A stretch of DNA of 64,000 nucleotides. Source: an uncultured Clostridium sp. Its GTDB lineage: Bacteria > Bacillota > Clostridia > TANB77 > CAG-508. Below, piece after piece: positions 29,139 to 58,340 of this stretch (within the stretch, counting starts at the first letter, position 1; every line of letters starts with the position of its first letter). The DNA is taken from positions 1,171 to 65,170 of the forward strand of contig CANSII010000005.1 of assembly GCA_947646915.1 (NCBI GenBank), read 5' to 3'. Below the pieces are notes generated by a model. The model had not been told where the DNA came from. It searched no databases and saw nothing but the letters and a program-made list of their open reading frames with translations. The position numbers and the translations under genes are program-made.

Positions 29139-29140
29139 AA

Positions 29141-29179
29141 ATGTCCAAAAGGAAACGTCTCCAATAGACAAATGGACAT
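29141..29179. repeat. R3 small palindromic element
   Basis: ATGTCCAAAAGGAAACGTCTCCAATAGACAAATGGACAT, abutting the stop codon of the 29179..30861 gene. Confidence 0.65.
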
Positions 29180-32847: not shown

Positions 32848-32892
32848 TAATTTCCCTTTTTTATAATATATTTTTTAATAAAACTACTTAAA

Positions 32893-33022
32893 GCTAAATA
32901 ATAATAATTTTAAAAAATAAGTTTGACCTGAGTTGTTATTCACTTTAACAAGTTATAGTATATATCTAAACATTGAACTTTTAGTAACTAAAACTCCTTG
33001 AAAAACGGAATTAATTATTTAG
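32893..33022 (+). repeat. R2 MITE-like repeat, overlapping the stop codon of the GT2 gene
   Basis: GCTAAATAATAATAATTTTAAAAAATAAGTTTGACCTGAGTTGTTATTCAC...AAAAACGGAATTAATTATTTAG. Confidence 0.65.
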
Positions 33023-33959
33023 ATATATTAATTGTCTTATCAACTATATATTGAGGTCTTTGTTTAGTTTCATCATAAATTCTACCTACATATTCAGCAA
33101 TAATCCAAATTGACATAAGTTGAATACCTGAGAAGAATGTAATAGCAACCATAATAGAAGTCCAACCAGCAGACAAATTATTCAAATGAAAAATATATGA
33201 AACTAAAGCATAAATCAATAATACAAAAGATATTACTATTGATAAAATTCCTAATGCTCCAACTAATTTTAAAGGTTTTGTTGAAAAGCTTATGATACCG
33301 TCAGATGCTAGTTTAAGCATTTTCTTTAAAGGATACTTTGTCTCTCCTGCAAATCTTTCTTTTCTTTCATATTCAAAAGGTGCTTGTTTATAACCAACCC
33401 AACTGAATAATCCTCTTAAAAATTTATTATGTTCTGGTAAAGTATTTATTGTTTCAACCACTTTTTTATCTACTAATCTAAAATCTCCTGTATCTTTTGG
33501 AATTTCAACGTCTGATAAAGCATTTAATGTTTTATAGAACATTTTTGCTGTAAATAATTTAAATGCACTTTCCCCTTCTCTTGATTTTCTTTTTCCATAG
33601 ATAACTTCATTTCCTTCTTCCCATAATTTTAACATATCAGGAATTAATTCAGGTGGATCTTGAAGATCTGCATCCATTATTATTATTGCATCACCTGTTA
33701 CATATTGTAGACCAGCAGTTACTGCTGCTTGATGTCCAAAGTTTCTTGAAAATGATATTATTTTTACATTTTCATCTTTTTTTGCAATATTTTCTAATAT
33801 TTCTAAAGTTTTGTCTTTACTTCCATCATTTACATATACTATCTCATGTTCATAATTTTCTAACTTTTCTAGATTTTCTTTTACTCTTTTGTAACATTCT
33901 TCTGCGACTTTTTCTTCATAATACATTGGTATAACAAGTGATACTTTTTTCTTTTCCAT
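33015..33959 (-). CDS. GT2 polyprenyl-phosphate glycosyltransferase (GtrB/CsbB-like)
   Basis: VSLVIPMYYEE, NDGSKD, MDADLQDPPE and two C-terminal TM segments. Confidence 0.85.
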   Translation of the reverse strand: MEKKKVSLVIPMYYEEKVAEECYKRVKENLEKLENYEHEIVYVNDGSKDKTLEILENIAKKDENVKIISFSRNFGHQAAVTAGLQYVTGDAIIIMDADLQDPPELIPDMLKLWEEGNEVIYGKRKSREGESAFKLFTAKMFYKTLNALSDVEIPKDTGDFRLVDKKVVETINTLPEHNKFLRGLFSWVGYKQAPFEYERKERFAGETKYPLKKMLKLASDGIISFSTKPLKLVGALGILSIVISFVLLIYALVSYIFHLNNLSAGWTSIMVAITFFSGIQLMSIWIIAEYVGRIYDETKQRPQYIVDKTINISK

Positions 33960-39203: not shown

Positions 39204-39992
39204 CTATATTTTATTTGTATCTACTGCTTTTTTATAAAATTTCATTATAAATTTTGCTATTGGTTCAGGCCAATATCTTTTTAGCATTAACAAATCTTCT
39301 TCTAATCTAATATTATTTTCAATTAAATTTGAAGTTTCAGATTCCTCGTGTATTCTATGTTGCATTAATTCTTTTGGAATATATAAAAAATTTGATTTAT
39401 ACTGTGTCATTTTGTCCCAAGTATCCCAATCCAAGTCACATTTAAGTTCTGTCTTATATGGTTTTTCACCTGTTATTTTCTTATTAATAGTTACACTTGG
39501 ACAACAAATACTACATCCTAATGATAATACTCTCCTTTTTATAAATTTTGACTTTTTAAATATTCTTAATGGGAATAATAAAACTTTCTTTAATTTCAAA
39601 TTGTTAGTTAATTCAATTTCTTCTCCATTTTTTAGTTCTCTATAATCTGTAAAAGCAATGACAAAATCTTTGCCGTTTTCTAATTGATTTACTATTTCTT
39701 CAAGATAAGTTGATTTATAAACATCATCTTGATGTGCAATTGTTACATAATCTGTCTTAACTTTGCTTACACCAAAATTCCAATCTTGCCCTATTCCCTT
39801 TTCTCCTTCATTAACAAATACTGGTATTTCGTATTTTTTTGCTAAATTTTTTATAAAATCATTTGGTGTTGATGTTGTTATTATTATATTACTTTTTACA
39901 GTTTGTTTTATTACTGATTTTATACATTCTTCTAAATATTTTGATGTTTTATATGCACATATAACAAAAGTATGTTTTTTAAACTCTTTCAT
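39204..39992 (-). CDS. GT2 glycosyltransferase
   Basis: FVICAYKTSKYLEECIKSV and HQDDVY. Start taken at MKEFKK. The upstream 42 codons of the track ORF are R1 read-through. Confidence 0.8.
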   Translation of the reverse strand: MKEFKKHTFVICAYKTSKYLEECIKSVIKQTVKSNIIITTSTPNDFIKNLAKKYEIPVFVNEGEKGIGQDWNFGVSKVKTDYVTIAHQDDVYKSTYLEEIVNQLENGKDFVIAFTDYRELKNGEEIELTNNLKLKKVLLFPLRIFKKSKFIKRRVLSLGCSICCPSVTINKKITGEKPYKTELKCDLDWDTWDKMTQYKSNFLYIPKELMQHRIHEESETSNLIENNIRLEEDLLMLKRYWPEPIAKFIMKFYKKAVDTNKI

Positions 39993-40004
39993 TTTACTAT
40001 TTAT

Positions 40005-40223
40005 CCTTTCACTTCGCTTCGCTTCGTTCATCGTCATCCTAAAAATTCTTCGAATTTTTCGTCTGCCAAATTTTTTTCTTTGGGGCCTTTTCGCTTCGCT
40101 TCGTTCATCGTCATCCAAGCTTATGTATACAGAATTTATTTCATAAATTCTGCATAAGATATCTGTATTTCGCTTTGCTCAAACAGCTTTTTTAATTTTT
40201 CGTCTGCCAATTCTTTTCTTTGG
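40005..40223 (-). repeat. R1 leader repeat, composite: short form (40005..40083) plus long form (40086..40223)
   Basis: Two copies of CTTCGCTTCGCTTCGTTCATCGTCATCC. The second carries the CAGAATTTATTTCATAAATTCTG hairpin. Both end with CGTCTGCCAA-T-rich-CTTTGG. Confidence 0.8.
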
Positions 40224-40225
40224 AT

Positions 40226-40615
40226 CTATTTTGATTCGCTTTGCTCTTCGCCATTGGTTGGAATAGAATTCTTCTCCAATTCTTCTACTCTTTTTTTCAA
40301 CATTGATATTTCTTGTATCAATAATATATTTTTATTTTCTTGTTTTGTTATTAATCGTGTTAAATCAAATATTAAATATAATATAACAAATATCGCAAAA
40401 CAAAATATCATATTTATTGGAAGTCCAAATCCTAAAGAATTTGAAATATTTTCAACAAAATTTGGAGCTATAAGTGCAATTATTAGAATAATTCCTATTA
40501 TAGACCAAAATATTAAATAATTTATACGCATATTTTTTCTTTTTACAGATTTTGATATACAAAATAGGTATATTAATAATATTACTATTAATGCTATCTT
40601 TAATGTTATTTGCAT
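40226..40615 (-). CDS. DUF2304-like small membrane protein
   Basis: 129 aa with 3-4 TM segments and a C-terminal coiled segment. Its start overlaps the stop of the GT2 gene upstream in the operon (shared base 40615). Confidence 0.6.
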   Translation of the reverse strand: MQITLKIALIVILLIYLFCISKSVKRKNMRINYLIFWSIIGIILIIALIAPNFVENISNSLGFGLPINMIFCFAIFVILYLIFDLTRLITKQENKNILLIQEISMLKKRVEELEKNSIPTNGEEQSESK

Positions 40616-41337
40616 TATCTTTTGCCCCCTCTTTTTCTAAAACTAATGCTATCTATTATTATTGCTAAAACTACTTTCATCATATAATCTGCTGGCTTCC
40701 AAAATTTACTTGTTAATGAAGAAACTCCACCTTCTCTTTCATTCATATTTACAGGAACTTCTTTAATTTCATATCCATTTACTAATAAAGATACTGTTGA
40801 CTCTGGCTCAGGATATTCAGTTGGATAATTTTTAGCAAATTCTTCTATTACTTTTTTATTTGCAGCTCTAAACCCTGATGTAGGATCTGTTATTTTTTTA
40901 CCACAAAATAATTTAATACATAATGTAATTATATTTGCACCTATTCTTCTAATTAATGTTGATTGAAATTCACTTTCTTTTTTATCTAAAAATCTTGTTC
41001 CTATTACCATATCAGCTTGTCCTTTTTTTATTAATTCACTAACTTTCTCAACATAACTTACATCATGCTGTCCATCTCCATCAAATTGAATTGCAATATC
41101 ATAATTATTTTCATAAGCATATTTATATCCAGTTTGTACTGCTCCTCCTATTCCAAGATTATGAATAAGTTTTATATGATTTATATTGTTTTCTGTTAAT
41201 ATCTTTTCTGTATTATCAGTTGATCCATCATTTATAACTATATAATCTAATTCATTACTATAATCTTCTATTTTTTTACATGTATTTAAAATATTTTCTT
41301 CTTCATTATAAGCTGGTATTATTAATAAAATATTCAT
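40615..41337 (-). CDS. GT2 glycosyltransferase (polyprenyl-phosphate sugar synthase-like)
   Basis: LLIIPAYNEE, VINDGSTDNT and QFDGDGQHD. Confidence 0.85.
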   Translation of the reverse strand: MNILLIIPAYNEEENILNTCKKIEDYSNELDYIVINDGSTDNTEKILTENNINHIKLIHNLGIGGAVQTGYKYAYENNYDIAIQFDGDGQHDVSYVEKVSELIKKGQADMVIGTRFLDKKESEFQSTLIRRIGANIITLCIKLFCGKKITDPTSGFRAANKKVIEEFAKNYPTEYPEPESTVSLLVNGYEIKEVPVNMNEREGGVSSLTSKFWKPADYMMKVVLAIIIDSISFRKRGGKR

Positions 41338-41492
41338 CTAATTCTCTCCTATTTTATATTTAGGTTAATAATTTTAATGTCGTTATATTTTGTTAGAATT
41401 TCTTAATGTCTACAAGACCAACCGAGATACAAATAAATATTTATATATCAGCAGTTTCACTATAATATTTTCTAAAAATTATTAACCTGTAA

Positions 41493-43193
41493 CTATTTTA
41501 ACATTTCACCTAATAAAGCTACTGCAATAAAAATATTTTGTGCAATTGTTATTTTCATAACAAAATTTGTATCATTATTACTTTTTAAACTCTTATTTGA
41601 TATACACAACATAATTAATGGTAAAATTGGAAAAATATATCTTAATTGGTATCCTAATACATAATCAGCTCCAACTGGTGCACATGCAATATATAAAATT
41701 CCACTTGTAAATCCGTATGTTAATAAAAAAATTATAAACATTAAACTTTTCTCTTTAAATGTAAAGTTTTTACTGTCATCTTTAATAGCAACATAAAAAT
41801 AATATAAAAGCATTATTACAAAAACATTGTTTGCCTTTGAAGAGAAAAATATTTCAGAATTAATATGTTTTAGCCATTCCATATTTAATAAGGTATTTCT
41901 AATATGATTATAAATAACCTTTGGAATAATTAATGGATGTTGTATTGCATTTTTTATTTGTTCAGTTGAATTTACGTTTTCAAATCTATTATCTGTTAAA
42001 TTAACTTTAGGTTGAATGACAAGTACTATTGCATTAGCAATTATAAATCCTATAATAATTAGCGGAATTTGTTTTTTATATTTTTTAATTAGCTCTTTTA
42101 TTGGAAGTAATAAAACTAATAATCCAACTAAAGCATATGACATAGATTTATATGATAATAATAAAGTATAAATAATTGCTAAATTTATCAATTGTTTCAA
42201 TGTTATATTTTGTTTATTATTATTTAGCTTTAAACAATATGCTATAAATAACAATACAAACCCTATCCCAATTCCATCTGGAGAATATGTTGCAGATAAA
42301 CATATTATCATAGGAATTGTCATTATAATTAAGAATAGATTTTTTTTATATGGTAAATTTTTTATTATTAAACTTATTAAAATAATATAGGCAATCAAAT
42401 TAAAAAATCTTCCTAATAAAAATATATCTGCTACACTTCCTTGTAAAATTCTTCCTATTAATATTCCTAATGCTGAAGGCATATATATTATTGGACTATA
42501 TGTTGCTGGTGTAGAATCTACTGTTCCCTCTTTAGGTAATTCTCCTTCTTGAAAATCATATTTAACTTTAAAAAATCCTTCCAAAATTGTATAATGTGTA
42601 CCTGTTTTTAAATCTGTCATGAATTGCTTATCAACAATTGGTTCTTCATAATTTATATTACCATATGATAAATTATAAGCTGACATAAAATGTTTTTTTT
42701 CATCAAATACATGATACGCATTAACTGTAATGCAAAATATACATCCAATCAAAAATATTGATACAATATTAGTTATATATTTATTTGTTACATATTCAAT
42801 TGCCCAAAATAATGTTATTAACAATATAGATACCATTGAAAATTGAATGAGAGCTAATTCTTGTTTTATTAAAAATTTATATAAATAAATTATAAACAAA
42901 ATTACTGCTATTAACATATATATAAGTAAAGCATATTTTTTTATTTTATTTTTAAAAGAATCTGAAACTTCATTTATTATATTGCTCTTATTTAAATAAA
43001 ACATTGCAATTAATATTAATAAATAAAATATTCCTCTACATAGTGAAAAGAAAAATCCTTCTGATGGTCTATGTGTTAAAACTGCTGTTGTAAATTCTAC
43101 ATTACAATAACCAAATTCAAAAATTGCAATTAATACTATTAGTAATATCCAATTGAAAATTTTTATATTTCTATTATTAAATATTTTTTCCAT
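41493..43193 (-). CDS. polytopic membrane protein, DUF2142-like (paralog of 29179..30861)
   Basis: 566 aa with shared motifs HVFDEKKHFMSAYNLS, YSPDGIG and GYQLRYI. Confidence 0.6.
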   Translation of the reverse strand: MEKIFNNRNIKIFNWILLIVLIAIFEFGYCNVEFTTAVLTHRPSEGFFFSLCRGIFYLLILIAMFYLNKSNIINEVSDSFKNKIKKYALLIYMLIAVILFIIYLYKFLIKQELALIQFSMVSILLITLFWAIEYVTNKYITNIVSIFLIGCIFCITVNAYHVFDEKKHFMSAYNLSYGNINYEEPIVDKQFMTDLKTGTHYTILEGFFKVKYDFQEGELPKEGTVDSTPATYSPIIYMPSALGILIGRILQGSVADIFLLGRFFNLIAYIILISLIIKNLPYKKNLFLIIMTIPMIICLSATYSPDGIGIGFVLLFIAYCLKLNNNKQNITLKQLINLAIIYTLLLSYKSMSYALVGLLVLLLPIKELIKKYKKQIPLIIIGFIIANAIVLVIQPKVNLTDNRFENVNSTEQIKNAIQHPLIIPKVIYNHIRNTLLNMEWLKHINSEIFFSSKANNVFVIMLLYYFYVAIKDDSKNFTFKEKSLMFIIFLLTYGFTSGILYIACAPVGADYVLGYQLRYIFPILPLIMLCISNKSLKSNNDTNFVMKITIAQNIFIAVALLGEMLK

Positions 43194-43332
43194 TTTTTAA
43201 CCTTTCTTTGTTACTTGTTAATATTTTTCATATTTCTATTTAATGAAATTGTTAATATATAAATATTTATTCAACTTTTCGATTACCTTGCACAACACTT
43301 AAGAAATTCTAAAAATAGACCTGTAAATTTGT

Positions 43333-45564
43333 TTATTTTTTTAAATGTCCTTTTATTTTTTTTGCAATCTTCCACGCTTTTGAATTTCTCATCATTTCAT
43401 ATCTGTGTACAACATGTCCATATATTGCCTTATATTCATTAAAATCAAATACATTACTTATAGCTTTATAATCTAGAAATTTATATATATCAACTAATTC
43501 AATTTTTTCATCAGTTTTAATATTCGTATATAAATTATTATAATATTCTTGCATTTGTTCAATAGTTTTAAATTTATAATTTTTAAAATTTTCTTTTTTC
43601 TTTTTATATTCATCTTTATTATTACTTATTTCTACTATTTTTTCAAGTATTTTTGAATTATTTGTATTAAATTCAATAACCCATCCTAAATTGTCTTTTT
43701 TTACTCTATCACCTACAGCTCCAATATCAAATGTAAGTATAGGTATGTGTCCCATATAGCATTCAGATAATGTATACGAATATGTTTCTGGACATGTAGC
43801 AAAAATACATGCTAAATCTATATTATTATCAATTAATAATTGTGGCAATTCTTCTCTTACATATTTACCATGATTTATATACATTTTTGTACTTTTTACT
43901 AATTCTTTATCATTAGTTTTTCCAAAAAGATGTATTTTTATATTAGAATTTGTATTAGTTTTAACCAATTCTTTTAAAATTTTTTCACCCTTATGTATTG
44001 CCATAGCTCCAACAAACGCAATATTGAATTCTTTTTTGTTGCTTCTATTTTCTTTATTTTTGATATTTATAACTTTTACTCCATGTTCTACAACTTCTAT
44101 TTTTAAATCTTTATATATATTGTTAAACAGTTTTTTTGTATTTTCAGATGGAACGATTATCTTATCAAACTTTTCTATAACATTTTTGCAAGTTTCTTGC
44201 CATTTATCTAAAATATTATTATTTACTTTTAATCTATTATACAAGCATTTTTCACAGTCTTTTTGTTTATCATATTCACAATAAATGTCTTTATAAATCA
44301 TATTGATTGACGGACAAATCATATATAAATCATGTAATGTAATTATTGAATATATATTTTTTTCTTTTGCAATATCAATTGCATCAAATGTTTGGAATAG
44401 AAAGTGATGTACATGCAAAATATCAATCTTAAAACTATCAAATATATTTTTTAACATTTCTTTATATGTATTATTTGTATATACTACTTGTCCATAATGA
44501 TTTATATCTGTCTTATAATTTGCAATTTCTCTCGCATAGTCTTTTGTATATAAATATAATTTAAATCTTGATAAATCATATCTATCTGGTGCTAATACAA
44601 AACTTGCTATATTGTTTTTTATATTTGATAATATTATATCTTTTATATGAAGTGATGTTCCCCCTGTCATATCCATATTTTCTTCCCATTCATTCACAAG
44701 ATATAATATCTTTTTCTTCTTATATAATTTAGTATTTAAATCTACATTTTCTTGTATATCACGAAGCGGATTATTTGCTATAAAATTATCTGTTTTTTGT
44801 ACATAAATTGGATATTTTTCTTTCAATAATTGCATATGTTCTTTAACTAATGCCATTCTTGATGATGTTAAGTTTTCCTTTTTAAAACTTTGTGTTCCTT
44901 TATGATAAATAAATGTATTATCACATAATACATTTGTATATCCATGGTCTAATGCTCTATAACAAAAATCATTTTCTTCTCCATAACCTTTACCAAATGT
45001 TTCATCATCAAATAATCCTATTTTATTTATTACATCTCTTTTTATATACATACAAAATCCATTTCCTGTTGTTAATTCAGGATATCTATTTTTAGATATT
45101 TCTTCTATAATTTGAGCATATTCATCTAATGTTATATCTTGTGGCAATTCATTATCAACACCAAAATTTGGTACTGAACATATTGTTCCATTATTTGTAA
45201 GTGGTGTTACTGTTGCTATGTATTCATTTGAATATGCACATTTTTGAATTTTTTCTATCCATGTTTTTGTTACTTCTGTGTCACTGTTTAATAAAATTAC
45301 ATCGTTTTCAGAATATTCCATTCCTTTATTTACTGTTTTTACAAATCCTAAATTTTGTTCATTGTCTAATACTACTATTTGCTTTCCTTCATTTTCATTT
45401 TTATATTTTAATAACATCGGCATTATTTTTTCATCTGGACTTTTGTCATTTATTAAAATTATTGTGTGTTTTGTTAAATCTGTATTTTTTATTAGACTTT
45501 TTATACATTCTTCTGTATATTCATATGCATTATAAATTGGTACTATAATATCTATGTTTTTCAT
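43333..45564 (-). CDS. bifunctional GT2 + GT4 glycosyltransferase
   Basis: N-terminal IDIIVPIYNAYEYT...LNSDTEV (GT2). The C-terminal half is GT4/GT1-like (HVHHFLF, EGFG-type region). Start taken at MKNIDI. Confidence 0.8.
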   Translation of the reverse strand: MKNIDIIVPIYNAYEYTEECIKSLIKNTDLTKHTIILINDKSPDEKIMPMLLKYKNENEGKQIVVLDNEQNLGFVKTVNKGMEYSENDVILLNSDTEVTKTWIEKIQKCAYSNEYIATVTPLTNNGTICSVPNFGVDNELPQDITLDEYAQIIEEISKNRYPELTTGNGFCMYIKRDVINKIGLFDDETFGKGYGEENDFCYRALDHGYTNVLCDNTFIYHKGTQSFKKENLTSSRMALVKEHMQLLKEKYPIYVQKTDNFIANNPLRDIQENVDLNTKLYKKKKILYLVNEWEENMDMTGGTSLHIKDIILSNIKNNIASFVLAPDRYDLSRFKLYLYTKDYAREIANYKTDINHYGQVVYTNNTYKEMLKNIFDSFKIDILHVHHFLFQTFDAIDIAKEKNIYSIITLHDLYMICPSINMIYKDIYCEYDKQKDCEKCLYNRLKVNNNILDKWQETCKNVIEKFDKIIVPSENTKKLFNNIYKDLKIEVVEHGVKVINIKNKENRSNKKEFNIAFVGAMAIHKGEKILKELVKTNTNSNIKIHLFGKTNDKELVKSTKMYINHGKYVREELPQLLIDNNIDLACIFATCPETYSYTLSECYMGHIPILTFDIGAVGDRVKKDNLGWVIEFNTNNSKILEKIVEISNNKDEYKKKKENFKNYKFKTIEQMQEYYNNLYTNIKTDEKIELVDIYKFLDYKAISNVFDFNEYKAIYGHVVHRYEMMRNSKAWKIAKKIKGHLKK

Positions 45565-45577
45565 AATTACTTCTTTT

Positions 45578-45710
45578 CCTTTCACTCGCTTCGCTCGTTC
45601 ATCGTCATCCAAGCTAATGTATGCAGAATTTATTTCATAAATTCTGCATAAGATATCTGTAATTTGCTTCGCTCAAACAGCTATCTTAATTTTTCGTCTG
45701 CCAAATCTTT
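45578..45710 (-). repeat. R1 leader repeat, long form, upstream of the GT2+GT4 gene
   Basis: CCTTTCACTCGCTTCGCTCGTTCATCGTCATCC + hairpin + TTTTCGTCTGCCAAATCTTT. Confidence 0.8.
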
Positions 45711-45733
45711 ATTTTAAAAATAAAACTATTTAA

Positions 45734-45878
45734 AGTCAAATAATATTAATTTGAAAAAATGAGTTTGACCTGAGTTGTTATTCACTTTAACCAATTTTAG
45801 TGTGTTTCTAAAATATGAATATTCAGTATCTTAAACGCCTTGGAAAACGAAATTTTTGAAAATTCATATTATTTGACT
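45734..45878 (+). repeat. R2 MITE-like repeat, full copy (first of a tandem pair)
   Basis: AGTCAAATAATATTAATTTGAAAAAATGAGTTTGACC ... AAAATTCATATTATTTGACT. Confidence 0.8.
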
Positions 45879-45920
45879 TATATTATTATTTTTTTATCCC
45901 TAACAAACTAAATAATTTAT

Positions 45921-46059
45921 ATAATACTTAATTTGAAAAAATGAGTTTGACCTGAGTTGTTATTCACTTTAACCAATTATAGTGTGTTTCTAAAATATGA
46001 ATATTCAGTATCTTAAACGCCTTGGAAAACGAAATTTCTGAAATTCATATTATTTGACT
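45921..46059 (+). repeat. R2 MITE-like repeat, full copy (second of a tandem pair)
   Basis: Near-identical to 45734..45878, and the flanking about 45 bp is duplicated as well. Confidence 0.8.
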
Positions 46060-46096
46060 TATATTATTATTTTTTATACATAACAAACTAAAAAAT

Positions 46097-47797
46097 TTAT
46101 ATAATACTTATTCCTGTATTTGTTTTACTTAAATTTGGGCTAAAATAAGCATCACCTTTTTTATATTCTTCTCTCCATTTGTTCATTATTTTTTCTTCAT
46201 CTTCTTTATTCTTTTCAATTTGGTTTACCCCTCTAACTTTTATAGAAATTATTGGATTTATTATTACTTGTTTTCCTGAAGCAAGCATTTTTAAACATGT
46301 ATCAACACTAACAGCTAAACCTGTAAATTCACTTGTAAAACCACCTATTTGCATAAATACATCTTTATCTATCATTGCATATTTTGTATATACACAAGAT
46401 ACATTATGTATAATCAATAATCTTTGCATATATGTGCCTATATCTTTTGGAACTCCTTTATATAGCAGATCTGCCATTCCATTCATTCCTAATATAATTC
46501 CACAATGTTCAACTAATTCCTCTTTATTATATAATTTGGTTCCTACTATTCCAACATTTTTATCTTGACAAATTCCAATTAAATCTTGTATAAAACTTTT
46601 TTTATCTATATAATCTAATTTTTCATCTAATATCATAAAGTATTTTCCATTAGATTGAGAAATTGCTTCATTATAATCTTTAAATATATCTTGTGATGGT
46701 TTCACAACCTTTTCTACATTTTCTACTTCTTTACTAGAAATAGCTATAATTTCATAATTTTCATAGTCTGTTGATTTTTTTAGTTTTTCAACTATTGATT
46801 GTATATCATTTTCAAAACAATTTCTGCCATCTATTATTATACTAACTTTTGGATTTCCTTTTACAATATATTTTATCTCATAACTTCCAGGTGTTAGACC
46901 ATCTGTAACTTCTACATCTGTATCTAAATTTCTTTTTATATGATCCTTTATTACTTTTTTTCCTATTTCAAACGCATATGGTTTTGAATCAGAATTTTGT
47001 GCTGTTGAATTTTTATGTGCTCTCCAATGATATAATACTTTTGGAATATGAACTATATTATCAGTAATCTCTGATGCTCTTGCAACTATATCAAAATCTT
47101 GACTTCCATCATATTCACTTCTAAATCCACCTAACTTGTCCATTAATTCTTTTTTAAATACACTGAAATGGCAAATATAATTTGCACTATTTAATGTATA
47201 TGGTGAAAAATCTGGTTTGAAAAATACACCATATCTAGGTCCTTTCGTTGTTTCAAGCTTATCTTCATCTGAGTATAAAAATTCTACATTTGAATTTTCA
47301 TTTATTGCTTTTACTATCTCATATAAAGAAAAACTAGGTAATAAATCATCGTGATCTAATAAACCTATAAAGTCTCCAGTTGCAAGTGTAAGTGCTTCAT
47401 TAGTGTTTCCTGAAATGCCTTTATTTTCACCTATTATTTTGTATTTTATTCTATCATCTTTTTTTAAATATTCTTTTATATATTCAATTGGTTCAGGTGA
47501 ACCATCTGCCAAACAAAGTTCCCAATTTGAATAAGTTTGGTCTTGTAAACTTTTTACCAATTCGTCAAAAAAATCTTTTGGTGTATTATATACTGGCACA
47601 ACTATACTAATTTTAGGTTGAACTTTAAATACAGTAATTCTTTGATTTTTTAATTCTTCTTTACTTGGTTCATTTTTATTAATCCAATTTTTATAAATTC
47701 TTTCTTCTTCACTATATTTTGAAAAATATTTTGTATATATATTTTTTATAAATTCTCTTCTTTTTGACCCTCTTGGTAATATTCTATCTATGCTCAT
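46097..47797 (-). CDS. two-domain GT2 glycosyltransferase
   Basis: ISIVVPVYNTPKDF...LDHDDLL (GT2) plus a second Rossmann-like GT module (VSIIIDGRN...). Confidence 0.8.
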   Translation of the reverse strand: MSIDRILPRGSKRREFIKNIYTKYFSKYSEEERIYKNWINKNEPSKEELKNQRITVFKVQPKISIVVPVYNTPKDFFDELVKSLQDQTYSNWELCLADGSPEPIEYIKEYLKKDDRIKYKIIGENKGISGNTNEALTLATGDFIGLLDHDDLLPSFSLYEIVKAINENSNVEFLYSDEDKLETTKGPRYGVFFKPDFSPYTLNSANYICHFSVFKKELMDKLGGFRSEYDGSQDFDIVARASEITDNIVHIPKVLYHWRAHKNSTAQNSDSKPYAFEIGKKVIKDHIKRNLDTDVEVTDGLTPGSYEIKYIVKGNPKVSIIIDGRNCFENDIQSIVEKLKKSTDYENYEIIAISSKEVENVEKVVKPSQDIFKDYNEAISQSNGKYFMILDEKLDYIDKKSFIQDLIGICQDKNVGIVGTKLYNKEELVEHCGIILGMNGMADLLYKGVPKDIGTYMQRLLIIHNVSCVYTKYAMIDKDVFMQIGGFTSEFTGLAVSVDTCLKMLASGKQVIINPIISIKVRGVNQIEKNKEDEEKIMNKWREEYKKGDAYFSPNLSKTNTGISII

Positions 47798-47800
47798 ATC

Positions 47801-49324
47801 TTAATTCCTCTTTAAAAATTTTTTATTATTTGCATTTTTTTCTATTTCATTTTCTAATGCATTAATGTATTCTTGCTTTTTTGCATTATCATTTTTTGCT
47901 TCTTCTAAATATTTTTCTAAGTTTTTAATATATTCACCACTTCTTATTATTTCTTGCCAATATGATTTATTTTCATTTATTAAATTATCTATTGCTTTCA
48001 AATTATCTTTTTTATACATAGCTTCATATACTTGTTTATCTATTATTTCTTCTCTTAATTCTTTATCTATATTTTCAAAAAGTTCTTTATATTGTAAAAT
48101 ATTAAGCTTTTCTAATAATTCATCTATATTTATTTTTCTAACTAAATCATATGAATTTATAATTGCTCTATAAATAACAAATTCTACTGGTAAATAGTCT
48201 TTTTCCCATTCTTGATCGAAAAATACAAATTCATCATTAATGTAAAAACAATTTTTAGGAACCATATCCCAATAACCTTTTTCCATATAATTTAATTTAT
48301 CTAAAATTTCTTCATCATCGCTGAAATTTAATTTATCTTTGCATTCTTGGTATTTTACAGAATCTTTTAGCAACATATCCCTTTGTTTATTTAGTATTTC
48401 AACTACTTTATCAATATTATTAGCGTTATTAGCTAATATACTATCTAATGTTGATTGATTTTTTATTAATTTGCTATATATTTTTCCATCTTTTTCATAA
48501 TCTAATATTTTTATATTTTCATATTTTATGTTGTTTATTATATCTATCATATTATTAATATGTTTTTCTGCTTTATTATTTGCTGTTAACTTTTCTACAA
48601 CATTATCTTTAATTATTGTTATTAATTGATATTGTTCTTTTCTATAATTATTAAAAGAAACATAATTAATAGAATTTTCGCTTTCTTCTTTTGATATTTC
48701 AATTAAGTAGGAATTTACAAAAAAACTAATCATTTCTGGCGCATTTAATACTATCGTTTTTAACATTTTTATTTCATCAAATACTTTTATTTCATCTTCT
48801 GATATATTTGGATTATATCTTTCTATATAGCTTATATCTATGTTATAATTTTCATTTATAATTACTTCTGATGTTTTATAGTCTGGAAAAGCATAAAAAG
48901 TATTTATTTTGGTTAAATTATTTTTTTGTAATTCTTTTTTTACATAGCTTAACGTTTTAATTTTTTCATATTGATTTTCTAAAGATAAAATACCATTTTT
49001 ACTTTCAATATCATATTTGCTCCAATTGTTTATTCCTAATTGATTATTTCCAATTATTAACATTTTTCCTTTGTCGTTCATTATTTCAATAACTTTTTCA
49101 ATAATATCATTATAATTTTCATATCCATATATTAATATATAATCATATTTAATATCTAAACTCAAATCATCAATATTTTCAATTGTTTTTATATTTTTAA
49201 AATTTTTTTCTAATTCTTTTGTAATACATTCATTTAAGCCTATTTGAATTATTGTTTTATCTTTTTCAAAAGGATACCATTTGATTATATTTGAATTAAA
49301 TATTTTTAATTTATCTTGGTTCAC
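47801..49324 (-). CDS. hypothetical protein: weak methyltransferase-like N-terminal region, central domain, C-terminal coiled coil
   Basis: 507 aa with IIQIGLNECI...DYILIYG and a heptad-like C-terminus (YLEEAKNDNAKKQEYINALENEIEKN). Confidence 0.4.
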   Translation of the reverse strand: MNQDKLKIFNSNIIKWYPFEKDKTIIQIGLNECITKELEKNFKNIKTIENIDDLSLDIKYDYILIYGYENYNDIIEKVIEIMNDKGKMLIIGNNQLGINNWSKYDIESKNGILSLENQYEKIKTLSYVKKELQKNNLTKINTFYAFPDYKTSEVIINENYNIDISYIERYNPNISEDEIKVFDEIKMLKTIVLNAPEMISFFVNSYLIEISKEESENSINYVSFNNYRKEQYQLITIIKDNVVEKLTANNKAEKHINNMIDIINNIKYENIKILDYEKDGKIYSKLIKNQSTLDSILANNANNIDKVVEILNKQRDMLLKDSVKYQECKDKLNFSDDEEILDKLNYMEKGYWDMVPKNCFYINDEFVFFDQEWEKDYLPVEFVIYRAIINSYDLVRKINIDELLEKLNILQYKELFENIDKELREEIIDKQVYEAMYKKDNLKAIDNLINENKSYWQEIIRSGEYIKNLEKYLEEAKNDNAKKQEYINALENEIEKNANNKKFLKRN

Positions 49325-49346
49325 TTATACTTTCCCCCCATTTTAA

Positions 49347-50132
49347 CTAAAAAATCTTTATATCTTGAATTCCATCTTTAGCAACATAATTTTGTTTTAC
49401 TTTTAGATCTTCCATCCATTTTCTAGTTTCTTTTGTTTTCCAAGGTCCAGAATCCTCTGCTCCATTTGCATTATTATTCCATAACCATTCAGGGGTTGGC
49501 CATAAACATATTTTAGGTTTTACTATTTTATAGAATTCTTCTGTTGCACCACTTTGTCCATGATGTGCAACTTGTACAATATCTGCTTTTAAGTTTTCTC
49601 TTTGATTTTTTATTAATTTTTCACTACTTTCTACTCCAGTATCACCTAAAAATAATATTTTTTTATGATTTACTTTTATTTGAAAAACCATACTTTGATT
49701 ATTAATAGCATTATTTGTTATTTCTGGATTTTTAACTCCTAATATTTTAACAGCTACATTATCAATTTTTATGATGTCATTAATTTCAGGCTCTATGTCA
49801 ATTTCTATATTTTTATTTTCTGATATAACTTCAAATGCTCCTGCATGATCTATATGTGGGTGTGTTATAAACCAACAGTCTACTTTGCCTCCATTATCTT
49901 CAATATAGCTTTCTAATTGAGGAGCATCTTCTTTAGTTCCACCATCTATTACTATTATTTTTCCATTAATTGATTTAATTCCATATCCCATCATTTGTCT
50001 TGTTGATGATGGGGTAAATTGTGTTAAGTATATATAATTGTTTATTCTTTTTATGTAATATACTCCAAAGATTAGCATTACTGTTAAAAATACTATTATT
50101 AATATTTTTATAATTTTATTTTTTTCTTTCAT
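49347..50132 (-). CDS. membrane-anchored MBL-fold metallo-hydrolase
   Basis: THPHIDHAG motif and an N-terminal TM segment. Start taken at MKEKNK. The longer track ORF reads through repeat R1. Confidence 0.7.
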   Translation of the reverse strand: MKEKNKIIKILIIVFLTVMLIFGVYYIKRINNYIYLTQFTPSSTRQMMGYGIKSINGKIIVIDGGTKEDAPQLESYIEDNGGKVDCWFITHPHIDHAGAFEVISENKNIEIDIEPEINDIIKIDNVAVKILGVKNPEITNNAINNQSMVFQIKVNHKKILFLGDTGVESSEKLIKNQRENLKADIVQVAHHGQSGATEEFYKIVKPKICLWPTPEWLWNNNANGAEDSGPWKTKETRKWMEDLKVKQNYVAKDGIQDIKIF

Positions 50133-50145
50133 TATTAGTTTCATT

Positions 50146-50212
50146 CCTTTCGCTTCGCTCATCGTCATCAATGATTCTTTAAACTTCATTTGCCAACTCT
50201 TTGTTTTCGAAG
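50146..50212 (-). repeat. R1 leader repeat, degenerate short form, upstream of the MBL gene
   Basis: CCTTTCGCTTCGCTCATCGTCATC ... TTTGCCAACTCTTTGTTTTCGAAG. Confidence 0.5.
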
Positions 50213-50220
50213 TCATTTAT

Positions 50221-51531
50221 TCATATTTTTTTTACATTTATATCTGAATCTAGTCTATATAATCCAACACAGTCCTTATTAGATGTTATCTCTACTAATA
50301 AAGCATCATATTTTCTGCTTAATACTTCTAATTCTCCACTACTATTAAAATGTGTACAACTAAATGATAATGTATATTTGTTTGGTGCTAAGCTTAATTT
50401 TTGTCTAAATTCCGCAATTGCTGTATCACCTTTATTAAAATCTCCTGTTACTATTTTTTCTTGTACAGTATTTGTTCCCATCATATCTAATCCTTTAAAA
50501 TCTTTTACTGTCATTGTAAAAATAGGGTCAGTGACCTTTTCATTAAATATTACTTTTGATTTTAATATAACTTCTTTATCATTTTCAATTGATGTTATGA
50601 TATTTCCATCTGTATCAAAAATTCCAAAATCAATTAAGTCTGCTTTTCCATTTCCATACTCAATTATATTTGGATTTATTGTATAATTTTTTTTCCATTC
50701 TTCCTGTTTATTATTTATTTTTTTTATTTTTATATCTTTTCTTTGTTCTACTTCAATTTTTTCTTTTTTTTCTATTTGTTCTCTATCTTCATCTAATTTT
50801 ACAATTATCTTTTTGTATCTTTCAACTCCTCCTTTTACATCACCATCATATATTTTTTCGCCACCATTTATGATAATTGCTCTTGTACAATTTCTTATAA
50901 CATCTGTAACATTATGAGTAACAAAAAGAATTGTTTTTCCTTTTTCTTTAAATTGTTCGAATTTCTTAAAACATTTTAATTGAAACGCCATATCTCCAAC
51001 AGATAAAACTTCATCTACAATTAATACTTCTGGATCAACATTTATTGCACAAGCGAATGCAAGCCTTGCAAACATTCCTGAAGAATATGTTTTTATAGGT
51101 TGATATAAATGCTCTCCAATATCTGCAAACTCTATAATATCTTGTTTACTGGCTTCTATCTGCTCTTCTGTTAGCCCCATAACTTGTCCATGTTGATAAA
51201 TGTTTTCAAGTCCTGTTAATTCAGAATTAAATGCAGCTCCTAATTCAAGTAATGAGCTTATTTTTCCTTTTACTTTGAGTTCTCCACTTGTTGGTGTTAC
51301 AACTCCTGTTATCATTTTTAATAGTGTCGATTTTCCTGCTCCATTTTTTCCAAGAATTCCTAAAACTTCTCCTTTTTTTAATTCTAAATCTAATCCATTA
51401 ATAGCACAAAATGTCTCATGATTGCTGTAAAAAGGTAGAATAGTTTCTAATAGTCTTGCTTTTTTACTTTTATACATTTTATATTCTTTTCTTAGTTTTT
51501 TAATTTCAATTACATTTTCTTCTTTTTCCAT
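50221..51531 (-). CDS. polysaccharide/teichoic-acid export ABC ATPase (TagH/Wzt-like) with a C-terminal beta-sandwich extension
   Basis: Walker A GKNGAGKST, signature YSSGM and Walker B LIVDE, plus a C-terminal domain of about 190 aa resembling a Wzt carbohydrate-binding domain. Confidence 0.85.
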   Translation of the reverse strand: MEKEENVIEIKKLRKEYKMYKSKKARLLETILPFYSNHETFCAINGLDLELKKGEVLGILGKNGAGKSTLLKMITGVVTPTSGELKVKGKISSLLELGAAFNSELTGLENIYQHGQVMGLTEEQIEASKQDIIEFADIGEHLYQPIKTYSSGMFARLAFACAINVDPEVLIVDEVLSVGDMAFQLKCFKKFEQFKEKGKTILFVTHNVTDVIRNCTRAIIINGGEKIYDGDVKGGVERYKKIIVKLDEDREQIEKKEKIEVEQRKDIKIKKINNKQEEWKKNYTINPNIIEYGNGKADLIDFGIFDTDGNIITSIENDKEVILKSKVIFNEKVTDPIFTMTVKDFKGLDMMGTNTVQEKIVTGDFNKGDTAIAEFRQKLSLAPNKYTLSFSCTHFNSSGELEVLSRKYDALLVEITSNKDCVGLYRLDSDINVKKI

Positions 51532-51540
51532 TTTTACTAT

Positions 51541-51681
51541 CCCTTCACTTCGCTTGTTTTACTCCGCTCGTTCATCGTCATCCAATCTAATGTATACAGA
51601 ATTTATTTCATAAATTCTGCATAAGATATCTGTATTTCGCTTTGCTCAAACAGCTATCTTAATTTTTTGTCTTCCAAATCT
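51541..51681 (-). repeat. R1 leader repeat, long form, upstream of the ABC ATPase gene
   Basis: CCCTTCACTTCGCTT...CCGCTCGTTCATCGTCATCC + hairpin + TTGTCTTCCAAATCTTT. Confidence 0.75.
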
Positions 51682-52680
51682 TTATCTTGTCCTTTTTTTT
51701 AATAGCCTTAAAATACAATACCTTATTTTAAATATTGGCTTTCCTAATAAAGGCAAATTCATTATAACAAAATTCATAATATAATATTTTAAATTTTCTG
51801 TCTTATATAATTTATGATATATATTCCAGTGTCTAAAATTCAAATTTTTCTTTTTTTGTATCATTTTAAAATATTTTAAGCTATCTATATTCAATTTTTG
51901 AATAGATTTTGGAAATCTATCATTATTTTCTACATATGTTCCAAAAACACCTAGTTTTACATTAATAAAATGTTCTCTTACTTGCTCTATTTTACTAAAT
52001 CCATGAGAAATTTTATTTGTTCCAACTTGATTATTCCCATGTTGCCTATATTTAATATACTTTTCTGACATATATGCTAATTTTCCATTTAATGCAACTA
52101 TTAATCCAATCCAATGATCATGTATCAAGAATTTTGAATTTTGAGGTAATGGTAGTATCTTATCAATATATGTTTTCTTTGATAAAACTGTACATCCAGT
52201 CACACAATTATATAAATAATTGACTTTATAACTATTTATATATTTTTTTATTTTTTTATTTAATAACATAAAATCTCCAAAAGATGGATATATTGTATTT
52301 AAAGTTTTATCAACAACTTCTAAATCTCCAAAAACTAAATCTGCATTTTCCTTTTTTAATTTTTCTATAGATTTTTCCGCTTTTTCTTTAAGCCATACAT
52401 CATCTTGATCTGAAAGCATATAAAAATCATTTGTTACTTGTTTTAATAAAAATTCTATGTTTTTTACAACACCTAAATTTGTTTTTTGAAGATACACTTT
52501 AACTCTATCATCAATTTTTTCATATTTTTTTAAAATATTAGGTGTATCATCTTTAGAGCAATCATCTGATATTATTAAATTAAAATTTTTATATGTCTGA
52601 TTTAATATACTTTTTATTTGTTCATCTACATATTTTTCACCATTATATGTAGCTAACAAAATATCTATTTTTTCGTCCAT
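51682..52680 (-). CDS. GT2 glycosyltransferase (rhamnosyltransferase-like), paralog of 57110..58102
   Basis: IDILLATYNGEKY...ISDDCS...SDQDDVW. Confidence 0.8.
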   Translation of the reverse strand: MDEKIDILLATYNGEKYVDEQIKSILNQTYKNFNLIISDDCSKDDTPNILKKYEKIDDRVKVYLQKTNLGVVKNIEFLLKQVTNDFYMLSDQDDVWLKEKAEKSIEKLKKENADLVFGDLEVVDKTLNTIYPSFGDFMLLNKKIKKYINSYKVNYLYNCVTGCTVLSKKTYIDKILPLPQNSKFLIHDHWIGLIVALNGKLAYMSEKYIKYRQHGNNQVGTNKISHGFSKIEQVREHFINVKLGVFGTYVENNDRFPKSIQKLNIDSLKYFKMIQKKKNLNFRHWNIYHKLYKTENLKYYIMNFVIMNLPLLGKPIFKIRYCILRLLKKRTR

Positions 52681-53481: not shown

Positions 53482-53541
53482 TATGTTTCCACTCCTTTTT
53501 ATACTATATCCTATATTAAAAATAAATTTTTGTCAATACAA

Positions 53542-53605
53542 ATGTCCAAAAGGAAACGTCCCCAATGGACAAAAATGTCCAAAAGGGACGATTCCTTTTG
53601 GACAT
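53542..53605. repeat. R3 small palindromic element, double copy
   Basis: ATGTCCAAAAGGAAACGTCCCCAATGGACA + ATGTCCAAAAGG-gacgatt-CCTTTTGGACAT (12-bp perfect stem). Confidence 0.7.
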
Positions 53606-53606
53606 T

Positions 53607-54323
53607 TTAAAATAATTCAACAATACTATTAAATATCTCTTCATTAGTCAACTGATTCTTACTATTTTCATTAATAAACACTATCATCTTATTATCATCT
53701 TGAAAATATTCATAAGTTTGAAATTTATCCATTTTTTCAAAAGTATAATTCCAAATATCACCTGATAATTCATCAACAATATAGCAAACACTTGAAACAT
53801 CTAAAATATACTGTTTATCTCCATTAATAATTTTATCTATTTTCTTATCTATATCATTTTGCTTATTTTTTTCTTGTATTCTTAAATATCCATTATTATC
53901 TATGGTATATTTAGAATTAACATTCTCATTATTAAATAAATTTAAAATTTTATCTCTACTATCCTTTTCAATCCATATACCATTTTCTTTTGGTAAATTT
54001 TCATTTAGTATAGTATCTAATTCTTCCATTGTTGGAACTGATTTTTTTATCATTCCAGCAAATGCTACTTTATATTTTATATTTGCTTTTACTGTTAATA
54101 CTTGTCTACCATCAAATTCTTGTTGAACTTCATATATTTCAGTATTTCCTGTCAATCCTGTTTCTTCTTTTAATTCTTCTACAGTTGCTATATTTTGAGC
54201 CGAATCTTTTTCTTTATTTTGTTCTTCTTTTTTTATTATTTTAAAAAAAATACATATAAAAATTATTACTAATATTATTAATATTACACTTATAATTGTT
54301 TTCTTATTATCTTTCACTACCAT
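53607..54323 (-). CDS. hypothetical membrane-anchored protein
   Basis: 238 aa with an N-terminal TM segment. No family recognised. Confidence 0.45.
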   Translation of the reverse strand: MVVKDNKKTIISVILIILVIIFICIFFKIIKKEEQNKEKDSAQNIATVEELKEETGLTGNTEIYEVQQEFDGRQVLTVKANIKYKVAFAGMIKKSVPTMEELDTILNENLPKENGIWIEKDSRDKILNLFNNENVNSKYTIDNNGYLRIQEKNKQNDIDKKIDKIINGDKQYILDVSSVCYIVDELSGDIWNYTFEKMDKFQTYEYFQDDNKMIVFINENSKNQLTNEEIFNSIVELF

Positions 54324-58173: not shown

Positions 58174-58220
58174 TTAAGTTTCGGCTTTTTGCAAAAATAT
58201 ATTATTTAGAAAAAAGATAT
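58174..58220. repeat. R4 repeat copy (left half plus spacer)
   Basis: TTTAAGTTTCGGCTTTTTGCAAAAATATATTATTTAGAAAAAAGATAT aligns with 8908..8955. Confidence 0.4.
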
Positions 58221-58230
58221 ATATTATTCA

Positions 58231-58340
58231 GCTTTGTTTTCCATGGCGTTTAAGATATTGAACATTCAAACCTTAGAGACACAATATAATGACTTAAAGT
58301 AAATAACGACTCACTGTCAAACTCGCTTTATAATATATAT
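58231..58340 (-). repeat. R2 MITE-like repeat, degenerate, reverse orientation
   Basis: The reverse complement contains GAGTTTGACAGTGAGTCGTTATTTAC...CAATATCTTAAACGCCATGGAAAAC. Confidence 0.5.

Follow-up and report, generated by a model that had tools for sequence, protein, structure and literature searches.

R1 in the window

R1 is a short repeat that abuts start codons in a 64,000-nucleotide stretch of DNA from an uncultured Clostridium sp. (GenBank assembly GCA_947646915.1, contig CANSII010000005.1, positions 1,171 to 65,170 of the forward strand). We refer to this whole stretch as the window. It has a GC content of ~25% and a strong strand asymmetry, with ~54 of 58 long open reading frames (ORFs) on the minus strand. 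A first-pass annotation, made from the letters alone, had listed seven R1 loci and described the repeat as built from modules, here called A (or A'), B, and C. Using a repeat finder, nhmmer, and a covariance model, we found R1 at all seven loci, on the minus (gene) strand, at a frequency far beyond chance. Module A occurs with up to three mismatches at four places in the window, module C (GGATGACGATGAACGAGCGAAGCGAAGTGAARGG) has exact matches at 13330 and 22082, and the expected number of matches for modules A and C under dinucleotide-preserving shuffles is 0. Profile searches of the window with nhmmer and the covariance model gave nine C-module copies and at least 12 units, on the minus strand throughout. 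Pfam assignments of the flanking genes (murD, fabF/accB, fabD/fabG, DUF2304/GT2, GT2/GT2+GT4, Wzt ABC/MBL, and GT2/Wzt) agree with the gene names given in the first-pass annotation (murD, accB, fabG, GT2, GT2+GT4, MBL, and ABC/Wzt). The copies are as follows, starting with the one flagged for study.

45578..45711, minus strand: R1 at GT2+GT4 (flagged copy), long form; ATG at 45564-45562
45692-45711, minus strand: A' of the flagged copy, AAGATTTGGCAGAC
45612-45690, minus strand: module B of the flagged copy, with a 14-bp stem (45620-45633/45637-45650) and a GAA loop
45578-45611, minus strand: C module and GAAAGG of the flagged copy; GAAAGG at 45578-45583, 13 nt before the ATG
13330..13470, minus strand: R1 at murD, long form (A, B, C); ATG at 13320-13318
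19955..20034, minus strand: R1 at accB, 5'-truncated, second B hairpin and degenerate C only
22082..22312, minus strand: R1 between fabD and fabG, three 75-nt short-form units; fabG ATG at 22069-22067
40005..40223, minus strand: R1 at GT2, two-unit array; GT2 ATG at 39992-39990
50146..50212, minus strand: R1 at the MBL-fold hydrolase gene, degenerate short unit (GAGTTGGCAAA ... GATGACGATGAGCGAAGCGAAAGG); likely ATG at 50132-50130
51541..51682, minus strand: R1 at the Wzt ABC-ATPase gene, long form with an 8-nt insertion in C; ATG at 51531-51529

Two of the seven are not full copies: the one at accB is truncated, and the one at the MBL-fold hydrolase gene, placed between that gene and the Wzt ABC-ATPase gene, is degenerate. 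The accB copy occupies the whole fabF-accB spacer, with the accB ATG at 19943-19941 and its Shine-Dalgarno (SD) sequence, GAAGGGAG, at 19953-19960. The array at fabG extends farther than first reported, to 22312. Its unit 1 is internally deleted (22241-22312) and is partly coding, so that the last ~16 codons of fabD and its TAG stop (22265-22267) are R1-encoded (22265-22312). The GT2 array consists of a long-form A-B-C unit (40091-40223) followed by a short-form unit (40005-40074) with the hairpin AAAAATTC-GAA-GAATTTTT, and an extra C-like stretch, weak and degenerate, lies at 40236-40284. A degenerate C-like stretch and the module TGTCCAGCTCTGCATAAGTCATCTG also lie 5' of the murD copy, at ~13480-13517.

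The R1 unit and its hairpin

Reading at least 50 copies on the gene strand, we found that the basic unit consists of GATTTGGCAGA, an A/T hairpin with a GAA loop, and the purine-rich GATGACGATGAACGAGCGAAGCGA. In detail, an optional 5' part (GCTACAAAGAAA or CYACAAAGAAA) is followed by AGATTTGGCAGA, a stem of 8-13 A/T base pairs, and GGATGACGATGAACGAGCGAAGCGA; the loop is GAA, rarely AAA or TTTA, and the last unit of an array runs into (G/A)(T)GAAAGG. The proposal of a three-module build with an optional ~75-nt middle part holds in that R1 is modular and its order is fixed: A', then either the simple hairpin or module B, then C. The real unit, however, is A' plus the short A/T hairpin plus C, and module B is no add-on. 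It contains two hairpins, one of them the 14-bp stem TATGCAGAATTTAT-GAA-ATAAATTCTGCATA, and is an insertion substituting for the simple hairpin, whose old half-stems still border it in the murD copy. Short units are 57-76 nt long (57, 61, 74, 75, and 76), and those with module B ~135-140 nt. Among 52 arrays from the window and related DNA (see below), 29 have a single unit, 16 have two, and 7 have three.

The two arms of the hairpin stay complementary while their sequence changes. The first-pass annotation had proposed a structure and covariation analysis, which we carried out on 27 distinct short units, with shuffles and slid partners for comparison. Stem cells are paired in 96.5% of cases versus 85.9% in shuffles and 24-72% with slid partners; six of 11 pairs change on both sides, and the 25 compensatory cells are matched by none of 500 shuffles. 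Hairpin variants at ribosomal protein (r-protein) loci are again perfect palindromes (e.g., TTTAGAATTTC-GAA-GAAATTCTAAA and GGAAATTTCC-TTTA-GGAAATTT). Stem mismatches read on the sense strand are more often G-T than A-C (~11 variants versus 2), a weak hint at sense-strand folding. By thermodynamic prediction, the short form has hardly any structure (z +1.6 to -1.3), its C tract and SD are unpaired, and its A/U-only hairpin has a free energy of -3 to -6 kcal/mol; the long form is predicted to be significantly structured (z -3.6 to -4.4).

Three further identities were considered for the unit and rejected. A peptide-coding repeat or read-through is suggested by the fabD-fabG array, whose 75-nt units are in frame with both genes, but the other unit lengths are 57, 61, 74, and 76 nt, and indels, which are frequent, move the units out of frame. 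An intrinsic terminator does not fit a hairpin that is A/U-only and lacks a U-tract. As for a CsrA-type double GGA site, the first GGA (UGGAUGA) is not conserved and reads AGATGAC in several species.

Position and orientation of R1 across related DNA

We took a census of R1 with a covariance model over the window and 111 related loci (labeled L001 onward), together ~1 Mb. It supersedes a first census with a fuzzy regular expression, which caught almost only exact copies. The model gave 82 matches, 67 of them in 290 kb and the other 15 in 718 kb, and each lies on the strand of the local genes. No antisense R1 was found in ~1 Mb; the single antisense match is the palindromic stem itself. The matches cluster into the 52 arrays, which precede 33 downstream-gene groups (~30 after merging orthologues), and 52 of 52 arrays are in sense. 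On this count, R1 keeps to one orientation and adjoins start codons, as the first-pass annotation had described. The single orientation noted by the first-pass annotation is uninformative within the window, given its strand bias, and becomes meaningful through the larger census.

The RBS (ribosome-binding site) end of R1 is anchored. The terminal sequence of the array is (A)G(T)GAAAGG in 30 of the 33 gene groups, where the start codon lies 7-13 nt past the GG (up to 27 nt past the core), in line with the first-pass annotation, which placed a terminal GAA(A/G)GG close before the start codon. Beyond GAAAGG, the spacer and start context differ at every locus. The three exceptions (L007, L011, and L021) share a single composite in which R1 sits within a palindromic element of another family, R3, directly 5' of its AAGG. 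The distance to the start codon is fixed, whereas that from the upstream stop varies from 0 to >200 nt, and on this ground we argue that R1 is locked to the gene downstream.

Genes downstream of R1 include rpsS, rpsQ, rplX, rplR, adk, rplQ, rplT, murD, murI, radC, mreB, fabG, accB, and glycosyltransferase genes; the R1 sites at rpsS, rpsQ, rplX, rplR, adk, rplQ, rplT, murD, murI, mreB, and fabG are operon-internal. At the GT4 locus, the order is rpmA, a terminator-like hairpin, a promoter-like TTTACA-17-TAAAAT, the R1 array, and the ATG. Judging from gene order, R1 almost certainly lies in 5' untranslated regions (UTRs) and intercistronic spacers and is transcribed in sense. Of the earlier suggestion of a transcribed cis-acting leader, the location is supported: R1 is found in apparently transcribed spacers of r-protein, fab, and mur operons and, at the GT4 locus, past a predicted terminator and promoter.

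R1 and the Shine-Dalgarno sequence

The first-pass annotation held that the repeat itself provides the RBS. At the window loci this probably holds, with the end of the repeat serving as the working SD: R1-led genes in the window have a uniform R1-type GAAAGGA SD with long spacers, unlike the other genes. Across R1-bearing genomes, R1-led genes have GAAAGGA or AGAAAGG with spacers of 10-12 nt, and other genes mostly have GGAGG-containing SDs with spacers of 5-9 nt. At rplR, rpsQ, rplX, and adk, by contrast, the SD exists without R1, since R1-free relatives have the same native AGAAAGGAG or GGGAGG SD and the same spacer. The native rplR SD is AGAAAGGAG-N7-ATG, and GAAAGGAGAATAAAAATG is identical in the R1-bearing L041 and the R1-free L043 and L044; the corresponding R1-free sites read AAAAAAGGGAGG at rpsQ, AAAAGGAGG at rplX, and AAAAGGAGAG at adk. 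At filled sites, R1 (...GCGA(G)(T)GAAAGG) overlaps the native SD in register, with the junction within the AAAGG microhomology. Because R1-free orthologues already carry the same SD and spacer, we conclude that R1 fuses in register with the native SD.

We scored the openness of the RBS as the mean predicted unpaired probability over positions -18 to +6. It is 0.64 for R1-led genes and 0.53 for other genes (n = 24 versus 245; p = 3e-4). In in-silico edits at 13 loci, openness is 0.69 with R1 intact and 0.65 and 0.66 with the unit deleted or shuffled, which is not a significant change and lends no support to the proposed leader function in translation control, processing, or stability; inverting R1 lowers it from 0.69 to 0.55 (p = 0.03). 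On these predictions, R1 would be neutral in sense and mildly harmful in antisense, a simple selective ground for the orientation lock.

Turnover of R1 among close relatives

R1 turns over fast. The rpsQ site is filled in L016 (two units) and empty in L013 and L032, with S17 98-99% identical. In the filled allele, 7-11 native nt are replaced, the A' start is 5'-truncated, and target duplication is absent. The only difference between L040 and L041 over rplF-rplR is one 60-nt unit with TGA repeats at its borders, and parsimony with L036 suggests that it arose by deletion. The GT4 leader holds one to three R1 units across seven species, and between L036 and L040 a whole hairpin is swapped between identical flanks. 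At rplR, L032 has a diverged R1 copy (~82%) despite 98.6% identity between its rplR coding sequence and that of L010. R1 5' ends are ragged and 3' ends are fixed; 5'-truncated copies with intact 3' ends recur (19955-20034, 22241-22312, L025:5213, and L031). Gain, loss, and change of unit number among close relatives look, from these alignments, more like an unstable repeat than a conserved riboregulator.

One further candidate for an empty site, L034, was dropped because its neighboring genes are far more divergent than its rplR. The latter is 98.6% identical to that of L010, but rplX (44% amino acid identity) and rpsQ (73%) are not, and the neighbors are GC-richer. The L034 contig is probably a chimeric assembly or a recombinant.

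Distribution and search for known relatives

The exact 24-nt core of R1 occurs in 31 stretches from ~12 species-representative metagenome-assembled genomes (MAGs) of uncultured Clostridia or Clostridium sp. from human and mouse gut. The closest R1-bearing genome, MGBC107383, is ~93% identical to the window at murD. For a sample chosen independently of the repeat, we took 80 metagenomic r-protein operon loci through the L18 protein of the R1-bearing L010. Matches to the R1 model are limited to loci whose L18 shares at least 87% identity with the L010 protein, and R1 is accordingly confined to a narrow clade.

R1 was not recognized as a named repeat family in the first-pass annotation, and our searches bear this out. 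The whole window has no match in Rfam 15 at gathering thresholds, and a permissive scan of 39950-40300 gives noise (E >= 0.24). Phage, plasmid, and viral collections contain no blastn matches for R1, and viral contigs no exact matches to the core, so the possibility that R1 is a fragment of a known prophage sequence found nothing in its favor there. The core string leads to unrelated primers only in the searchable literature. R1 is a genuine, undescribed, lineage-restricted non-coding repeat family of ~25%-GC uncultured gut Clostridia.

Interpretation of R1

We favor the reading, with a probability of roughly 55%, that R1 is an RBS-anchored dispersed minisatellite resembling MIRU and REP2 elements, which is tolerated, co-transcribed, and spreads and changes size by recombination anchored at its SD end. 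R1 would reach new leaders and change its unit number by recombination, a mode of spread that we infer. Its SD-like 3' end would act as the anchor, which would account for 3' junctions that are fixed, 5' junctions that are ragged, and the lack of a target duplication. Within 5' UTRs and intercistronic spacers it would be co-transcribed. Sense copies would persist since, in thermodynamic predictions, the purine-rich tail is unable to pair with an SD that is likewise purine-rich, so that the RBS stays open; an antisense copy is predicted to do harm by setting CCUUUC and pyrimidine runs beside the SD.

Several points weigh against this reading. The 24-nt core was the search key for L001-L031, so that its perfect conservation there is ascertainment, and copies found without the key are more degenerate (L010:5108, L025:1615, L028:888, L032, and L035). 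Orientation alone cannot separate a lock to the gene from a lock to the replication fork, as ~90% of genes are co-oriented; R1 was not seen before minority-strand genes in the census, though just two to three such cases are expected. The openness tests are small in scale, rely on heuristic calling of start codons, and count some loci that are orthologous. Apparent covariation among paralogous copies can stem from subfamilies, gene conversion, or maintenance of a palindrome at the DNA level. Since the copies are paralogous with subfamilies, and L036 and L040 differ by a wholesale swap, RNA-level selection is not the sole account of the hairpin pattern. Finally, selection for a leader function could explain the strict SD adjacency at ~30 loci equally well.

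That last point leads to the foremost rival, a cis-regulatory leader in which a trans-acting RNA-binding protein or small RNA reads the GAA-loop hairpin and its flanks (UUGGCAGA / GAUGACGAUGAAC) and jointly controls the translation or stability of >100 mRNAs, which would form a post-transcriptional regulon. The ~30 independent, sense-only, SD-adjacent loci, several r-protein cistrons among them, are what such a leader would produce, as are the conserved flanks around a structurally maintained hairpin with a conserved loop and the excess of G-T (G-U) mismatches on the sense strand. We nevertheless consider it unlikely, for presence and unit number vary at the same gene in very close relatives, the short form is barely structured, and near-identical copies are typical of recent spread rather than of old riboregulators. 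Copies also decay, and the change of the first GGA (UGGAUGA to AGAUGA in several species) goes against a CsrA-type two-GGA site. Filled and empty sites among close relatives also fit a second rival, a non-autonomous mobile element that is recognized through its hairpin in single-stranded DNA (IS200/IS605-derived or REP/RAYT-like) and inserts beside (A)AAGG/SD or its complement, with its orientation following the fork and the target. A hairpin with conserved flanks, the lack of terminal inverted repeats and target duplications, and the single orientation in genomes with ~90% co-oriented genes are all compatible with this idea, and the R1 unit just 5' of a non-SD AAGG inside R3 (L007, L011, and L021) is suggestive; the three R3 composites, however, are probably one event that was later copied. 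No transposase is found among the 20 window genes scanned, which include all R1 neighbors. IS200/IS605 ends have two sub-terminal hairpins, an R1 unit just one, and R1 copies are direct and on a single strand, without the inverted pairs of BIMEs. At rpsQ, where 7-11 native nt gave way to a 5'-truncated unit, the filled site has no clean cut-and-paste junction. We rank this element behind the regulatory leader and regard it, too, as unlikely.

An mRNA processing or stability module, in which an endonuclease, cutting near the hairpin, divides polycistronic transcripts and leaves the downstream cistron with a 5' hairpin and an SD-proximal purine tract against 5' exonuclease, would have its counterparts in the 5' stabilizers and STAB-SD elements of Firmicutes. 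The intercistronic sites in long operons, the hairpin followed by an unstructured tract ending at the SD, and the significant structure of the long form suit it, but the weak A/U-only hairpin of the short form and the variation in unit number and presence among close relatives make it improbable. Far more improbable is coupling of the MIRU type, in which an ORF within the unit (ATG ACG ATG AAC ..., MTMNERSE...) is translated, terminates at the start codon, and hands ribosomes on. Every C module does contain an ATG-initiated frame, its stop and the gene start overlap as ATGA at 6 of 30 loci, and MIRUs are described as start-codon insertions with a coupled ORF (PMC12548453). Yet the frame of the gene start relative to this upstream ORF is uniform (13/9/8), stops are scattered from -76 to >+1000 nt, unit lengths of 57, 61, 74, 75, and 76 nt are not codon-periodic, the internal ATG has no SD at a usable distance (the GG abuts it), and in 25%-GC spacers chance alone should place stops nearby. 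With frames uniform and stops scattered, we rejected a coupled upstream ORF. Least probable of all is a portable promoter-plus-RBS cassette like Neisseria REP2. R1 is directly upstream of ORFs and ends in an RBS, and TTGGCA in A' resembles a -35 box, but no promoter-like site scoring at least 9/12 is listed inside the R1 copies in 39900-52000. The site near the flagged copy ends at the R1 5' edge, within a copy of the R2 repeat, and the GT4 locus has its site upstream of the array. Between TTGGCA and any -10-like hexamer the spacing is wrong and shifts by ~65 nt in the long form, and many copies are internal to r-protein operons.

Three related candidates were rejected: a sigma-70 promoter inside R1, for which a consensus scan found no internal site and incompatible spacing; a sigma-54 promoter, as TGGCA in A' has by eye no -12 TTGC; and a MITE (miniature inverted-repeat transposable element), as the R1 ends (GATTTGGCAGA / GCGAAGTGAAAGG) are not complementary and there is no target duplication (at rpsQ; L040 and L041 share only the TGA repeat). 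An inverted-repeat search of the window returned only the R2 and R3 families and no R1 terminal inverted repeats.

We also consider a bolder version of R1 spread, more tentative than the minisatellite reading and, on balance, unlikely: R1 may be a mobile or recombinational element that homes to SDs, its 3' end (...GCGA(A)G(T)GAAAGG) pairing by microhomology so that it lands in register and the gene stays translatable. If so, this target-site logic has not been described for bacterial repeats, one element would have colonized the leaders of about a tenth of genes, including several r-protein cistrons, and the genes would thereby have acquired a common 5' leader, open to later use by a single trans-acting factor.

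If the anchoring extends genome-wide, approximately one gene in eight (7 of ~57 in the window) would share a 60-140-nt leader before its RBS, among them genes for ribosomal proteins, cell-wall synthesis, and fatty-acid synthesis. This could mean one of two things: (i) selfish repeats colonize the most constrained spacers of a compact genome harmlessly, through merger with the SD and sense orientation; or (ii) R1 is the footprint of a large post-transcriptional regulon in abundant uncultured gut bacteria. In practical terms, unit-number polymorphism provides MIRU-like strain-typing markers for R1-bearing MAGs.

Other repeats and neighboring features

R2 is MITE-like, measures ~135-176 nt, and has ~44-nt terminal inverted repeats. 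Unlike R1, it is found in both orientations, as the first-pass annotation had noted. Its copies in the window are:

11763-11936: R2
15464-15647: R2
19296-19499: R2
32892-33069: R2
45736-45911: R2
45918-46093: R2
58210-58313: R2

The 532-nt spacer upstream of GT2+GT4 (45565-46096) is repeat DNA throughout, consisting of two tandem R2 copies and R1. One R2 copy ends in a promoter-like TTGACT-17-TAAAAT that adjoins the 5' edge of the flagged R1 copy.

R3 comprises palindromic elements of the form TGTCCAAAAGG...CCTTTTGGACA, at the following positions:

16456-16531, window: R3
29139-29172, window: R3
53540-53612, window: R3
L007:2040-2180: R3
L011:7217-7350: R3
L021:2200-2340: R3

In three spacers of MGBC107383, the composite consists of a left end plus the module TGTCCAGCTCTGCATAAGTCAGCTGAG, one R1 unit, and the R3 right part AAGGAAACGTCCCCGATGGACA. 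The 5' module of this composite also precedes the murD R1 copy in the window, at ~13492-13517. Upstream of that copy lies a ~550-nt gap (13520-14075) with no ORF of at least 100 amino acids and, on the gene strand, a T-rich low-complexity stretch.

In more distant relatives (L043, L044, L054, L056, L065, L071, L086, and L111), the rplF-rplR spacer contains a different, strongly palindromic repeat (…cttcgtctaacgtcgttaacc…ggttgcctagttatactcg…), and other insertions are found in the rplN-rplX and secY-adk spacers. The r-protein operon spacers of the whole group are hot spots for small repeats.

The mechanically called ORFs of murD, GT2, GT2+GT4, and MBL extend into R1 through upstream TTG or GTG codons, and because ORFs run into R1, gene callers will mis-annotate these gene ends. 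R1 is thus a warning for gene callers of false N-terminal extensions and C-termini. Five MAG contigs (L012, L019, L022, L023, and L028) start or end inside R1 arrays, which explains these short-read assembly breaks. The fabG gene (21266-22069, minus strand) has a +1 frameshift near 21506, beyond which the protein can be followed in a different frame (...NCIAP | GFIDTDMT...GGMLM*); an assembly error and a pseudogene are the two explanations. Elsewhere in the window, 34605-36848 and 54456-57005 encode large secreted-type proteins with six ChW (clostridial hydrophobic W) repeats each, one with a GH25 muramidase domain and the other with an M14 carboxypeptidase domain. These ChW repeats account for two families of 135-138-nt "direct repeats," D1 and D2.

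Comparison with known repeat families

MIRUs are 40-100 bp long, lie in intergenic operon spacers, are often tandem, vary in copy number, and follow the orientation of flanking genes; they are positioned at start codons such that insertion has little effect on expression (PMC12548453, PMC3184786). R1 resembles them in its units of 57-76 nt, arrays of one to three, sense orientation, adjacency to start codons, and variable copy number. MIRUs, however, have a small ORF coupled by a -4 overlap, whereas in R1 no frame is conserved and the unit lengths are not divisible by 3. R1 also merges with the SD, is A/T-rich with an A/T hairpin, and has hosts from an unrelated phylum; in base composition, too, the difference is large.

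Neisseria REP2 and the Borrelia plasmid IR have no terminal inverted repeats, contain internal stem-loops, lie just upstream of ORFs, and contain an RBS (PMC3184786). R1 likewise adjoins ORFs and holds an RBS, its terminal GAAAGG lying 7-13 nt before the start. Those elements carry a promoter and an ATG, whereas R1 carries neither: promoter-like sites are outside it, and the sequence past GAAAGG is locus-specific. R1 further differs in being frequent inside operons and in forming tandem arrays. TAACTGA direct repeats of marine Beggiatoaceae, some Cyanobacteria, and Bacteroidetes are orientation-specific, lie a few nt upstream of start codons, including in r-protein operons, and have no known function, though a translational role has been proposed (PMC4679880). 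R1 shares the orientation, the position just before start codons, and the presence in r-protein operons. The TAACTGA repeats are arrays of heptamers and stand in for canonical RBSs; R1 units are structured, 57-140 nt long, and have a canonical SD at their end.

BOX elements of Streptococcus pneumoniae are modular (boxA, variable boxB, and boxC), intergenic, and transcribed, and can modulate their neighbors (PMC3184786). R1 is modular too (A', optional B, and C). BOX elements are regarded as MITE-like and are neither RBS-anchored nor locked to gene orientation; R1 is sense-only and SD-adjoining, has no complementary ends, and shows no A'/C pairing. With REP/RAYT or IS200/IS605 elements R1 shares a conserved hairpin with conserved flanking nucleotides, but in the census it occurs in one orientation and not as inverted pairs. 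By these analogies, R1 is a new variant among small dispersed intergenic repeats positioned at gene starts, with MIRU, REP2, and TAACTGA repeats as its closest functional analogues. It differs from them in that it is fused in register with the SD, maintains its GAA-loop hairpin, and has a purine-rich tail, with 5' ends that are ragged and 3' ends that are fixed.

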